DNA of 64,000 nucleotides from Eledone cirrhosa (lineage: Eukaryota): contig OZ024742.1 of the NCBI GenBank assembly GCA_964016885.1, forward strand, positions 324,446,001 to 324,510,000, in the 5' to 3' direction. Under the pieces are notes generated by a model that saw only the letters and a list, made by a program, of their open reading frames with translations, had not been told where the DNA came from and searched no databases. Below are positions 7,401-60,735 of this stretch, piece after piece (the first letter of the stretch is position 1; every line of letters begins with the position of its first letter). The position numbers and the translations under genes are program-made.

Positions 7401-8161
7401 AAGGACTATATCACCCAAGGTGTATTTCTTTCCCCTTTTTTCCCCTAGGTATTTGCAGTGTGATTTGAGCCGGATTTAGCTACTGTGTTATGGATCCCCT
7501 GTCGAATAGCTTTGAACCAGTTTTATAATATTGACACAGTTCCCAGTGTGATAATCATCAAACTTGTTATATGAGACATCACACGAAAATTTCACGAAGA
7601 CTGAACATTTTGAGACAGTGACAAAAATTGTAATTGCTAACTTAAACATAGTTTTAAATTATTACAGTATCTGTGTAGCAGTTATTGGCAGTTTGAATCT
7701 GACCTTGTATCTGTCAGAGGAGACGTTCACTCTCAGTTTAAAATCTTCAGTAATTGAACCAATGTCATGATTAATGAAGGTGTATATACCTGAGGTTAGC
7801 AGTAGACTGGTTGAACTGCAGTCATGTCTCTAGAGGAATATATGAAATGATTAATCTTGTCAATTGCATTTATCATTGTAAATCGACACTTTATGTATAG
7901 CGATATTATAAAAAAAGGTGGTTAGCATCAGAAACACACACGCACACGCACACACACACACACACACACACACACACACACACACACACACACACACACA
8001 CACACACACACACACACACACACACACACACACACACACACACACAGGCATATATATATATCTAGGGAGTGTAACTTGGAGTTACTGTAGGTTCATATAT
8101 ATATATATTCATATATATATATTATGAAAATAAACCAAAGAAGCCTTCAATACATCAAAAG

Positions 8162-8216
8162 TCTTTATTAGCCAACAATGTTTCGTCCTATTAAGGACTC
8201 ATCAGGGCAATTAAAG
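8162..8216 (-). ncRNA. Type I hammerhead ribozyme (family A, intact core)
   Basis: Minus strand reads CTTTAATTGCC CTGATGA GTCC TTAATA GGAC GAAA C ATT G TT GGCTAATAAAG: canonical core, stems I and II, GUU cleavage triplet. Confidence 0.85.
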
Positions 8217-8486
8217 CTATAAGAAGCACTATCGGCCAATAAATACCATATTATTTTTAATAAAAATGTAATTAAACTTTCATTCTCTACCACCCCTAAT
8301 ATTAGTTCTCATTTAGCTAGCACTAACAATGGGAAAATTAGGGATGGATACTCCTCTCTACGTACTACTAGTCTGAATAGATCCATAAATGCCTTACCAC
8401 CTGAGCAGACCTTATGTCATAGTAACCCTACGTGTGATGCATCACTACTTCAGCCGATCAATAGCACCCGGAAGTGTAACTGTAGA

Positions 8487-8927
8487 GTGCGTGCTAACTG
8501 CCCTTTGAACGGTAACTGCCTCTCTAAGAACATCGTTTATGCTTGTGTAGTTAAAACCAATTCCTCTAATAGCACATATATAGGCTCTACATCTAACACT
8601 TTTAAGACTAGGTTTAATTCTCATATCTCTAATTTTAAACATGTTAAGTTTAAGAATTCTACTTCTTTAGCACACCATATCTGGGATCTTAAGGGGGCTA
8701 ATATACCATATAGCCTTAATTGGCGAATAGTAGCACGCTCTAATAACCTTTCAACACATACTAAATTTTGTAATCTCTGTATCCTTGAGACCCACTCTAT
8801 AATTTTCTCTAGGGAAACCTTACTTAATAGAAAGTCTGAGATATTCTCTTCTTGCCCCCACGCCATTTCAAATTCTTACTTTTATTATAAACCTAAAGGT
8901 TCTAGTAGTGTAAATTGTATCCATTAG
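8487..8927 (+). pseudogene. Penelope-type GIY-YIG endonuclease domain (ORF remnant)
   Basis: CNC..NCPLNGNCL, NIVY...TYIGSTSNTFKTRFNSH, SLAHHIWDLK, CNLCILE, LLNRKSEIFSSCPH. Confidence 0.92.
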
Positions 8928-10654
8928 CTGCTATATTCCCTTATCTTTTTAGTTTAGGTTCATTTTGTTTACCACCATCATTATCATCATTATTATTATT
9001 GGTTTTTAACAGCTTTTCATTCTAGCTTTCATAGTCATTTGGCTACCATACCATATCTATCTTCTTAAATATTATATTTTCACTATTAACACCTTATGAG
9101 TTTATATCTGATTATATATTTTATTTTATATTATTTTATTTTATTTTATTTGGATTCTTCTTTGGATAACTAACCCCTCCCCCACACACACACTTGTCAT
9201 TCGCCCCTTCAAATATACTATAATTATATTCAATTCTCTTTTATGCTCCTTTCTATTGTATAATACAGTATATTGATTATGATTTTATGCTCCTTCGTAT
9301 CCTCCATACATTTCTTTTTTCTGTCCCCATTGGCCTACCATAATTCTATTTAAAGTCCGTTTATTAGATAACGTTATTCAACTGATAGTAGAATATTTTA
9401 TTCTTTTCCAGATATTTTTATAGTGATATCTTAATATTTGGAGACTTTGATTACTTAAACCATAGCTAATTTTGTATTGACTTATTATGTATTTTAAATA
9501 CTTTCAATATTAATTAATTTAATAGGGTTTTCTAGTCATTTATCCGGGTTTGTTTCCTAAATTTTTTACTTAACTGCATGTGACACCTAAGTAAATACTT
9601 TTGTTTTTGTTTTTCGATTTCCGGTTGATTTTATTTATATATTTATACTACCGTGCGTAGTTTTCTGTCTGGTTCTCATTCACTTATTCACAAATGTCTG
9701 TCCACCAACCACGTAATTATGTATATTATATTATGTTCAATATTTTATATTGAAGTTTTATATCATTTCACTCTTTGTATACGTACTACTGATCTTTATT
9801 ATTTACCGATTATTAAATGTACCATTAAGTTATGTTAAATTTTGTAAATTCTGTAATATGTTTATATTTTTATAATTTTTATAATTTTTGTAATGTTTGG
9901 ATAATATTTATTTACACCAATTGTATAGAAATTTGACCTCCATCTGTTTTCTTGCAATGGTTTTGATATTTTTCCAACATAATTTAGTTCTGTACAATAT
10001 TTTTTCTCACCCGGTCTGTAACTCTATATGATTTGTTAAGTTATATGCCATTATATTATAATATTGTTATTATAGTGTTATTGTAACATTTATATTGTTT
10101 GTGCAAATTAACCGGAGATTATCTGTTATATAATTATATAGTTTATTATATATTATATGTTTACTTTTAATCATTTATTCTTCATTTTATACTGTAAATA
10201 ATATATGTATTATATTTTTATTTTTATTTTTATCTTTATTTTTATTCTTATTATTCTTATTATCCTTATTTATATTTAAACTCTTAATAAGGGTTAGTTT
10301 GTGCTTGTATTGATGGAAATGTGTATTGATATATATGTATATATGTGTACATATGTATATATATATATATATGTATATTGGGCCTTTTAATATTATTATT
10401 ATTATTATTATCAATTATATTTTATTATATTATATTATATATAGTACAATAATTTCCGCTCTATATCACCACCTTTGTTTAGCTTTAGTTTTTGCATTGG
10501 ACTATATTTGTAATATGGTTCAAAATGTTATTCACTTCCTTAGCAATTTTTACTAGATAATTTTTACCCGATAATTTTCCTATGCATTTAATGTATGTAC
10601 ACTCCATATTCTTCTGAGTTTTTGGCTTGTATTGGCCGATAGTGCTTCTTATAG

Positions 10655-10709
10655 CTTTAATTGCCCTGATGAGTCCTTAATAGGATGAAACATTGTTGGC
10701 TAATAAAGA
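10655..10709 (+). ncRNA. Type I hammerhead ribozyme (family A, sense copy)
   Basis: GCC CTGATGA GTCC TTAATA GGAT GAAAC ATT GTT GGC; one C>T change leaves a G-U pair in stem II. Confidence 0.8.
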
Positions 10710-10992
10710 CTTTTGATGTATTGAAGGCTTCTTTGGTTTATTTTCATAATTCTTCGGCTCTGTTTAATTACATTGAGCTATACTTTTACTGTCATTTCTA
10801 TAATACGAAGAGGGTGTTTAACTCCAACACACTCTAGTATTTTAATTCTTATATATATATATATATATATATATATATATATATATATATATATATATAT
10901 ATATATATATATATATATATATGTATGTATGTATGTATGTATATATATATATATATATATATATATATATATATATATATATATATACATAC

Positions 10993-58949: not shown

Positions 58950-59218
58950 ATATAAGATCAAAAGATGGTTACAAGAGTTCCAAGTATTTTATTATGCGCA
59001 TTTCAAAAACAAATATCATCATGGGATGATATCTGCGTTTTCATCAGATAAAATAAGGATACATGATATGAAGCTTAAAAAACACTTGTAAGTAGTGAAG
59101 TTTTAAATCAACATATGAAAAATAATTTAAGACTGATGTATGAGATTGTGAAAAAGTGAGGGTGGGTTGGAAAAGGTAAGGAAGAGGAGGAGATGAGAGC
59201 AAAGAATGGTAGGAGAGG
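58950..59218 (-). mobile_element. Third family F 3' fragment with intact hammerhead (58985-59055)
   Basis: Minus strand TATTTTAT CTGATGA AAACGCAGATATCATC CCAT GATGATATTTGTTTTT GAAA TGCGCA TA ATAAAATA. Confidence 0.85.
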
Positions 59219-59357
59219 AGTATATATATATATATATATATGTATGTATATATATATATATATATATGTATGTATGTATGTATGTATGTATGTATGTATG
59301 TATGTATGTATGTATGTAGGTATGTATATATATATATATATATATATATATATATAT

Positions 59358-59575
59358 TACAAAATAACAGGAGGCATTTTCTGGTGTAAATCCTTGAAAG
59401 GTTTATTTTACTATGATCATTTCAATGCCCGGGTTAAGTACGAATCCGGTGACATCATCAGGTATTTCAAAATATAACGCAGGAATGTATCAGATAAAAA
59501 TCTTTGGTGTTTAACTCAGAGAGAAGAGGGCGGCCGGTAATTTAGCGACTTGTATCTACGTCGACCGCCCTCAAG
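59358..59575 (-). mobile_element. Family G fragment with hammerhead (59409-59465)
   Basis: Reverse-complement homolog of ~55455-55590. Confidence 0.75.
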
Positions 59576-59582
59576 TATATAT

Positions 59583-60304
59583 ATAGAAGTGGTTACACAA
59601 CAGTTAGTTCACCATACCGAGAATAATTGTTTCACCTTAGCGGATCCTCAGCTCGTAATGGACATGGTTATACGGAACAGGAAGGACAACCGTACGAACG
59701 CGCATACGCAGAAACCGGTCATTTCACACAGGCAATACTAAAATGCGTGCGAGAGGTGTAAGGGAGATAACTGCGAAAGTCCGAAAAGTTTCTAATTGAT
59801 AAGAAAATTATGATGTTGTAATTCAATCCGGGGCTTTGTAGTTATGCAAGAGGTGTTTCGAGTGGATTATGTATTGATGAACGAATAAATATTCTAAAGA
59901 GATTATGCAATAGTGATTGCCTAAACACGAGAAATGAATTCTTCACACGTTGTTCCACGTCTCGAAACACTTCTTGCATAACTACAAAACTCCGGATTGA
60001 ATTCCAACAACATCATAATTTTTTTATCAACTAGAAACTTTTCGGACTTTCGCAGTTATCTCCCTTACACCTCTCGCACGCATTTTAGTATTGCCTGTGT
60101 GAAGTGACCGGTTTCTGCGCATGCGCGTTCGTACGGTTGTTTTTCCTGTTCCGTATAACCATACCTATTACGAACTGAGCATCCGCTAAGGTGAAACAAT
60201 TATTCTCGGTATGGTGAACTAACTGTCGTGTAACTTCTATCTAACTCGTCCCATGGACTGAGTGCTCTACCACTACGGATATTACTTTCCAGTGTTCTAC
60301 CACT
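59583..60304 (+). mobile_element. Fold-back element family H with hammerhead-like motif
   Basis: ~280-bp arms 59583-59862 and 59961-60240; 64-nt tail; minus arm CGAG CTGAGGA TCC GCTAA GGT GAAA CAATTA TT CTCG. Confidence 0.8.
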
Positions 60305-60347
60305 ATATATATATATATATATATATATATATATATATATATATATA

Positions 60348-60735
60348 TAAAATAAAGTAAAATAAATAAGTCAAATGTTTAAAATTTAGCTTCGTTTATT
60401 ACTGCTTTATATATTTCGGTGACAGCCATCTTTGGCTGTGACCTCTTCAGGCAGTCCGAATTAGTGTGGTATAGACAAGTACATATGTTGTTGAGGTGTA
60501 TAATTTTGTCAATACTCTGATATGCCCAGTTCCTGGTTGGGTTGTTATTTCACTGAGGAACTGGAATCATATCCATATATATAGCAGTAATAAACGAAGC
60601 TAAATTTTAAACATTTGACTTATTTATTTTACTTTATTTTACATTACTCCGGAGTAACCAAACCAACCTGCGCACTTCGTCAAGTGCTCCAGCCTGCATA
60701 CTGAGGTGTTGGTATACAACCAACATATACTCAAA
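60348..60735 (+). mobile_element. Fold-back element family I with hammerhead (minus strand 60401-60455)
   Basis: Arms ~60348-60414 and 60575-60641; ACTGC CTGAAGA GGTCACAGCCA AAGA TGGCTGTCACC GAAA TATATA (T/A)A GCAGT. Confidence 0.8.

Follow-up and report, generated by a model that had tools for sequence, protein, structure and literature searches.

We analysed a 64-kb window, positions 324,446,001–324,510,000 of contig OZ024742.1 (GenBank assembly GCA_964016885.1), from the 3.0-Gb, microsatellite-rich genome of Eledone cirrhosa. A first-pass annotation of this window had described nine fold-back elements (A–F, H, I and K) in (TA)n tracts, each with a one-sided tail. Self-BLAST after microsatellite masking, together with reading of the sequence, identified inverted arms at all nine coordinates, each element lying between (TA)n tracts with an unpaired tail on one side, as had been described; a generic inverted-repeat finder gave output swamped by (TA)n. 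The elements are listed below with a tenth fold-back, G, in order of position (window coordinates). Percentages are arm identities by self-BLAST, +1 is the putative transcript start discussed below, and the clade types of the Penelope-like elements (PLEs) and the hammerheads are putative.

A, 8121–10849, plus strand: Hydra-type PLE; tail-less inverted arm 8121–8241, second arm 10630–10750 (99%), tail 10751–10849; the interior holds a 5'-truncated endonuclease (EN) open reading frame (ORF) at 8223–8927, then 3' untranslated region; hammerheads at 8171–8208 (minus) and 10663–10700 (plus).
B, 17412–17951, minus strand: 3' end of a Neptune/Nematis-type PLE; fold-back with a 63-nt tail at left; arms 17480–17667 and 17755–17946 (91%); whole hammerhead, by eye, at about 17748–17790 (plus) within the tail-less arm.
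C, 18178–18377, plus strand: Hydra-type; hairpin 18178–18300 (18185–18293 by self-BLAST) with a 77-nt tail; the arms stop near the inferred transcript start.
D, 18528–18846, minus strand: Hydra-type; fold-back with an 87-nt tail at left; self-BLAST arms 18624–18837; hammerhead at 18742–18800 (plus).
E, 42381–44678, plus strand: Hydra-type; arms of about 835 nt (42386–43216 and 43660–44490, 98%), EN fragment 43206–43703 in the spacer, 178-nt tail; hammerhead at 42514–42633 (minus) with a 95-nt insert in stem II.
G, 50660–54148, plus strand: F-related, with reversed proportions; a tiny tail-bearing copy at 50660–50770 (minus) and a long tail-less arm that holds reverse transcriptase (RT; 50784–52109) and EN and stops at an internal site, 54148.
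K, 57352–57735, minus strand: Neptune/Nematis-type; 43-nt tail at left; arms 57407–57468 and 57664–57725 plus inner 57453–57573 (self-BLAST), both cut off 3' of the hammerhead; the tail-less (short) arm is broken at 57573–57663 by a dispersed repeat resembling a short interspersed element (SINE).
F, 58310–58739, plus strand: Hydra-type; near-perfect hairpin 58318–58635 (98%) with an 87-nt tail; a non-templated G at the junction just before +1; hammerheads at 58346–58416 (minus) and 58537–58607 (plus).
H, 59580–60303, plus strand: Hydra-type; fold-back (self-BLAST arms 59580–60243) with a 64-nt tail; junction microhomology of 5 nt.
I, 60345–60736, plus strand: Hydra-type; arms 60357–60414 and 60575–60632 (self-BLAST); the tail-less arm is the longer, reaches +1 and continues with non-templated CC (GG in sense); tail-bearing copy 60575–60736, then (CT)n(TA)n, the ending that had been reported for this element.

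Each of the nine fold-backs is the 3' end of a PLE that carries an endonuclease. For every family (9/9), natural longer copies have RT and/or EN coding sequence running into the same 3' end, which bears out the earlier proposal that the elements are PLE products. A and E carry EN directly; their GIY-YIG domains, also predicted earlier, gave E-values of 5e-4 and 0.07, both below Pfam's cut-off, and are backed by motifs. The remaining families, including the six (B, C, D, H, I and K) for which a link to PLE ORFs elsewhere in the genome had been left to be checked, are tied to PLE coding sequence by longer genomic copies (B at loci L344 and L345; C at L382, with a 788-codon open frame; D at L347, with RT and EN; I at L333; K at L197, L199 and L340, with EN; and likewise for H and F). 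The RT- and EN-bearing relative of F reported within the window is element G, the RT of which was not recognised by a Pfam search. Tandem copies, in the arrangement of pseudo-long terminal repeats (pLTRs), are present at L333, L337, L381 and L382. A homolog search returned 787 matches with no useful names, and no named reference was among the at least 120 listed.

By linker and motifs rather than by tree, A, C, D, E, F, H and I appear to be Hydra-type, and B and K Neptune/Nematis-type. The seven putative Hydra-type families all have a CxCx5C linker before GIY-YIG (7/7) and CxxC before residue E (7/7); CxH after residue N was found by pattern in 3/7 and by eye in families E, F, H and I, and CCHH is absent. 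RWR and SDKT occur in C, RWK-type and DKT motifs by eye in A, H and I, and DKT in D; E and F were seen in partial frames only. The linkers of B (CIDKKCITC) and K (CNDSRCGTC) have the form CX4CxxC, within the clade pattern CX2-5CxxC, and are accompanied by paired core cysteines and downstream histidines (CCHH); B and K could belong to either Neptune or Nematis. The description of the nine elements as unrelated thus stands at the DNA level only, seven of the families sharing Hydra-type proteins. Section 11 of PMC8557442 (Craig et al. 2021) defines the Hydra clade by the CxCx5C linker and flanking motifs, and that paper gives it a single RT plus GIY-YIG ORF with RWR/RWK, DKT, CxxC and CxH around E and N and no CCHH, together with minimal hammerheads and a (TA)n target, all as here. 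Its supplement includes Hydra-1_Obim, an Octopus element in (TA)n that by eye resembles those described here, and Penelope-13_HM, which has a 5'-truncated inverted copy. The families here differ from the clade as described there in their tails (64–178 nt versus 30–40 nt) and in C, where the 5' half of the hammerhead core is missing; neither the start-site motif nor the cap-G boundary described below occurs in the available passages, in which "hairpin" has no occurrences.

Tail-anchored genome searches yielded 26–30 loci per family, window copy included (266 in total). An inverted match lay within about 1.5 kb in 175/266 copies, and 128 of these ended no more than 8 nt from a family-specific site; the tail-less end was at one position in 12/12 copies of B, 11/11 of E, 14/14 of K and 22/24 of F. 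By contrast, 117 of 118 junction strings in the tail-anchored sets differed from one another. Short-arm ends that are fixed per family while junctions vary, a pattern that had been set out for checking, are new here, from 266 genomic copies. Either (TA)n or (CT)n(TA)n adjoined 124/128 tail-less (short-arm) ends and 241/266 tail ends, against a 16-mer background of 0.105 in the window, so that flanks are far richer in (TA)n than background, as expected earlier; a target-site duplication cannot be read inside (TA)n. Tails on genomic copies measured 43 nt in K, 63 in B, 64 in H, 77 in C, 87 in D and F, 92–99 in I, 99–100 in A and 178 in E. We aligned contigs from sequencing runs X1, X4, X5 and X6 and recovered no empty site for H or I; no piece spans an element, and X5 gave nothing. 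Short-read contigs from X1 and X4, runs that may come from the source sample, contain sequence of these families as well as several strand-switch joints that hold patchwork inserts, and in one X6 contig an I-type end continues for a short distance in inverted orientation. Assembly artefact is therefore an unlikely source of the hairpins, although the window's own junctions are not among the joints found in contigs.

At tail ends of I and K (L241–L270 and L181–L210), (CT)n or (CTAT)n lies between tail and (TA)n in about one third of copies, on the tail side only; this could reflect reiterative copying at initiation or later slippage. Telomerase-like repeat addition is not needed to account for it, because the template of I continues as TCTATCT and slippage from that seed would suffice. 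In the B family, a loose cluster of truncations about 320 nt from the tail end (L133, L140 and L344) lies just upstream of a AAAATGGCG/AAGATGGCG motif, which we take to be YY1-like.

A second boundary, missed in the first-pass annotation along with the start-site motif and added here, is the far end of the arms. In C, D, F, I and K, 83/164 arm ends lay within 6 nt of one position and 17 went beyond it. The base at the pile-up is an initiator-like A, in the contexts TTCATA (F and I), TCCACT (D), TT[C/T]AGT (C) and TACAGT (K), which resemble the initiator consensus, and a TATA-like box lies at −29 in C and −33 in K. With pile-up positions set before bases were compared, 51 ends in the pooled loci stopped at the A; the other arm explained the adjoining base in 20 and TA in 2, leaving 29. 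A non-templated G preceded +1 in 26/29 of these, as compared with 34/210 at other positions (Fisher p = 4e-15). An extra G in full-length L1 insertions is ascribed to cap copying in PMC11702581, and PLE transcription starts lie in the pLTR according to PMC8557442. We infer that the extra G at run-off ends is the signature of a copied mRNA cap; a sequencing-run listing consulted for RNA evidence of the start had no RNA run among those listed. As the main 5' boundary we rejected the hammerhead cut: the main pile-ups are 40–160 nt upstream of it, although a few I and K ends do lie near it. The cDNAs cross the cut site, so the template RNA would have been uncleaved.

The pile-up might instead mark a strong RT stop or a processing site, with G as the non-templated base that the RT prefers to add. 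A base preference of this RT might account for the G, and the several adjacent stop positions in C and K would fit such a stop. G is, however, not enriched at other stop positions, the stops fall on an initiator-like CA upstream of the hammerhead cut, and starts in the pLTR are already known for PLEs (PMC8557442, available text); we regard this explanation as unlikely, though the least unlikely of the alternatives weighed here.

Comparison of the two arms bears on how many cDNAs were made. We mapped arms on natural long copies and, after dropping ten with inserts longer than 60 nt and two mis-mapped D rows, retained 116 junctions. The tail-bearing copy was longer in 31, the tail-less copy in 37, and 48 were level (within 10 nt); the "short arm" of the first-pass annotation is thus correctly identified as the tail-less arm, but is often the longer copy. 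Junctions showed microhomology in 57 cases, were blunt in 12 and had an insert in 47. Microhomology, scored from alignments that may over-extend slightly, was at least 2 nt in 51/69 non-insert junctions, as compared with 18% by chance, and at least 4 nt in 25/69, as compared with 3%. Among inserts of at least 8 nt, 13/18 contained a local match of at least 7 nt (shuffled mean, 5.4). Minor alleles were common to both arms 89 times, as compared with 26.8 under shuffled pairing, beyond all 200 shuffles in 5/7 families; these shared alleles would reflect the same template or source, or later conversion. RNA editing was rejected as the source of differences between arms, A>G not being favoured (12 versus 7).

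Shared minor alleles, the nearly symmetric junctions (48/116) and the frequent placement of junctions on short palindromes (CATATG, CCGG) would also be expected if a single tail-primed cDNA folded back and copied itself into the inverted arm; self-priming at palindromes is proposed in the available text of PMC3846280. Under such snap-back, the tail-bearing copy has to be the longer one. The tail-less copy was longer in 37/116 cases, sometimes by kilobases (L347, element G and 6/15 long C stretches), even with queries biased towards long tail copies. A cap-type G is found at the end of tail-less arms as well (I in the window; F at L232 and L240), as it would be if they were copied from RNA. Snap-back is contradicted as the sole route, and we consider it improbable as the general explanation.

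MITEs (miniature inverted-repeat transposable elements) and foldback DNA transposons are short inverted-repeat elements in TA targets. The small elements described here ("minis") might likewise be non-autonomous units: a small number of hairpin masters would have been copied in their entirety, and palindrome instability would later have disrupted the centre. C, F and K have a narrow size range, junctions recur in K, C and F, and C candidates are numerous at first look (224–2087). We give this no better prospect than snap-back. All but one of the 118 junction strings differ and the ends are asymmetric, the recurring K junction is found in both orientations relative to the tail (L195 and L207 versus L205), and breaking of the centre would not place G at one fixed position. 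Unlike MITEs, moreover, the elements have variable centres and are continuous with RT-encoding copies: the two ends are shared with long ORF-bearing copies, and the minis lack the motif beyond the tail. Whether minis also spread as units had been raised as an open question; the answer is mostly no, given the differing junctions, yet some junctions do recur. Two successive independent insertions, head to head by chance in one tract or in a fresh first copy, would fit the dense nesting of families in shared (TA)n tracts (B, C and D side by side; many loci) but are very improbable, since there is no (TA)n between arms, one copy is almost always tailed and the other tail-less, and the arms share minor alleles above chance.

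Alongside what is observed here (that these are PLEs with two fixed ends, (TA)n on either side and junctions that vary, together with the extra G and the motif described below), we consider it probable that both strands of a (TA)n tract are nicked and that each end primes its own cDNA on the same capped RNA, the two being joined head to head. The element protein would make both nicks, and one nicked end would prime at the tail end of the RNA and the other at a fixed site 43–178 nt inside; by eye, this internal site shares about 1–7 nt with (TA)n. The template would be a capped transcript, uncleaved by the hammerhead, with its initiator within the pLTR. With an RT start on the 5' pLTR, the two cDNAs would run off the cap after 60–320 nt, adding C opposite the cap (the extra G), and this run-off would determine how large the minis of C, D, F, I and probably K are; a start on the 3' pLTR would give long, randomly truncated, ORF-bearing arms. 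Because the two cDNAs are identical in sequence, end joining would link them head to head, either at short stretches of self-complementarity or through inserts templated locally. The second stem beyond the tail is not copied, so the minis are predicted to be dead-end by-products that, without that stem and the upstream part of the promoter, would not spread as units. The earlier proposal that both nicked (TA)n strands prime cDNA over the same region agrees with the finding that either arm can be the longer (31 versus 37) and with the microhomology in 51/69 junctions; the two fixed ends and the arm lengths support it, whereas both-strand priming itself is deduced here from sequence.

Immediately 3' of the internal RT start, the tails of all seven Hydra-type families (7/7: A, C, D, E, F, H and I) contain RCTC and then its complement, GAGY (in A, GCTC...GAGC at 10757–10778, plus strand). 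By eye, the same motif recurs beyond the tail end in 5/5 families with an informative tandem copy (A, C, E, F and I). The motif rule fires at no more than 1.5% of positions in long copies, and the motif is not in B or K tails. As the Hydra-type families are related, its recurrence represents conservation rather than 12 independent events. By eye, it is present in the published consensus ends of Hydra-2_Amil, Hydra-1_Ajap (twice), Hydra-2_Ajap and Hydra-1_Crog (as GCCC...GGGC), and is not clearly present in that of Hydra-1_Obim. A predicted RCTC...GAGY stem just 3' of each start is likely to position RT in Hydra-type families. A broader proposal, to which we give about an even chance, is that inverted pLTRs of PLEs arise when two RTs act symmetrically on capped RNA and that, in the Hydra clade, a conserved RCTC...GAGYRCT stem sets each internal start; the tail would be the distance between two copies of the signal, and the minis the PLE counterpart of retroviral strong-stop DNA. 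If so, corals, sea cucumbers, copepods and this genome would all have retained the signal, including the GCCC/GGGC compensatory form.

Several points weigh against this account of two cDNAs on one capped RNA. The copies are the best 30 matches per family from 40 scored candidates per search, not a census. Inverted matches fell at other offsets in 47/175 copies; these raw matches were not curated singly and many are plainly microsatellite or neighbour matches, and a few have tails on both arms. Among long C stretches, 9/15 end at the tail, for which either a template extending past the tail (a tandem or circular source) would be needed or the second stem would have to be dispensable. Junctions recur about 8 times in K (pooled loci), in 6–8 of 30 query-biased copies of C and twice in F, and arms differ at 210 sites as well as sharing alleles. 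The position of +1 as a transcription start is deduced from arm ends; D, F and I have no TATA-like box, 22/51 ends at +1 were set aside (other arm or TA), and K yielded no informative end for the G comparison. No sharp pile-up is seen in A, E or H and only a loose one in B (H and E queries favoured long arms), and among ORF-bearing C copies one 5' pLTR begins near +1 whereas four begin further upstream. Minimum-energy folds give the RCTC/GAGY stem at 5/9 sites (not at C1, D1, F1 or I1), and the predicted stem is weak (−5 to −10 kcal/mol); we therefore treat the stem structure as hypothetical.

Hammerheads here are sequence motifs that represent putative ribozymes. A pattern scan of the window found whole motifs in both arms of A and F and in one arm of D and E; a strict pattern missed B, E, H and I, and a relaxed pattern still missed the window copies of B, H and I. 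The motifs of H and I are whole by eye, that of H with a mismatch in stem III. C has only the GAAAC...GTC half of the core, even in full-length copies, and K ends 3' of the core in the window, longer genomic copies of K having the hammerhead. By family, the whole motif is present in A, D, E, F, H, I and K by scan and in B by eye, with the half-core only in C. The scan matched 1/300 shuffled elements. In an Rfam scan of the window, microsatellite-driven microRNA matches dominated, and no hammerhead family was among the matches listed (best 150 of 228). The earlier count of eight of nine elements with a whole or partial hammerhead stands, K being the one without in the window. Family C is very young: many of its copies match one another at 100% over 241 nt, its tandem units measure about 3.55 kb, and it has open frames. 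It is among the most abundant families despite missing the 5' half of the core.

The architecture is real but of a known kind, and the core of the earlier interpretation is largely published (PMC8557442, PMC11167929). PMC8557442, PMC3846280 and PMC8969392 treat the inverted truncated copy, tail and microsatellite bias as standard for PLEs, and Figure 2 of PMC8557442 shows such a copy together with (TA)n and a tail on one side only. In vitro, PAc (Poseidon, Anolis) nicks and extends both strands, two internal RT starts bound the tail, product length is set from the RNA 5' end, and hammerhead cleavage is not needed (PMC11167929; Frangieh et al. 2024), as we propose here. That study leaves inverted copies unexplained, and PAc starts at an AC-rich stem loop that has no homology to the target, whereas the starts here share about 1–7 nt with (TA)n and, in Hydra types, have RCTC...GAGY. 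L1 twin priming, as given in the available part of PMC11702581, likewise involves a second RT on the reciprocal end, junction microhomology and an extra G at full-length 5' ends; however, L1 copies represent adjacent, nearly non-overlapping parts, whereas here the same part would be copied from two fixed starts, the difference that the first-pass annotation had drawn. Literature searches, with Arkhipova 2006, Schostak 2008, Evgen'ev & Arkhipova 2005, the PMC11167929 supplement and most of the PMC8557442 supplement outside their scope, found no twin priming, cap G or start-site stem in PLEs.

The origin of PLE tandem and inverted repeats and of the tail is described as an open problem in the available text of PMC8557442 and is unexplained in PMC11167929. 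The copies described here make that origin testable in three respects: whether a capped start lies at the mapped base, whether each event involves two cDNAs, and whether a short RNA stem sets the point at which RT starts. An internal-start signal that is portable, on a (TA)n-targeting RT related to telomerase, would matter for RNA-templated insertion tools, and annotators can easily mistake such minis for MITEs.

Other fold-back remnants and repeats lie in the window. An older fold-back at 54176–54535, with arms 72% identical and a right-hand tail with GAGTGCT, is probably another Hydra-type family; a decayed fold-back at 55819–56420 has 28-nt outer arms at 55825 and 56393; and a decayed C-related mini at 36773–36947 has its internal part replaced. 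Solo tail-bearing or tail-less pieces of K, C, F and another dispersed family lie between (TA)n tracts at 54913–55069, 27377–27451, 58957–59130 and 59362–59499/55453–55588. The SINE-like repeat, about 190 nt long and very abundant, often occupies AATT or ATAAT sites within PLE arms (K, G and several D and E loci) and occurs at 16381–16580, 33603–33793, 34256–34641, 41040–41232, 46799–46990, 53450–53658, 55620–55809, 57573–57663 and 58818–58949. A (CTAC)n-based satellite of about 1.9 kb spans 22812–24700, and the segment 10997–11599 recurs at 25036–25635 (96%).

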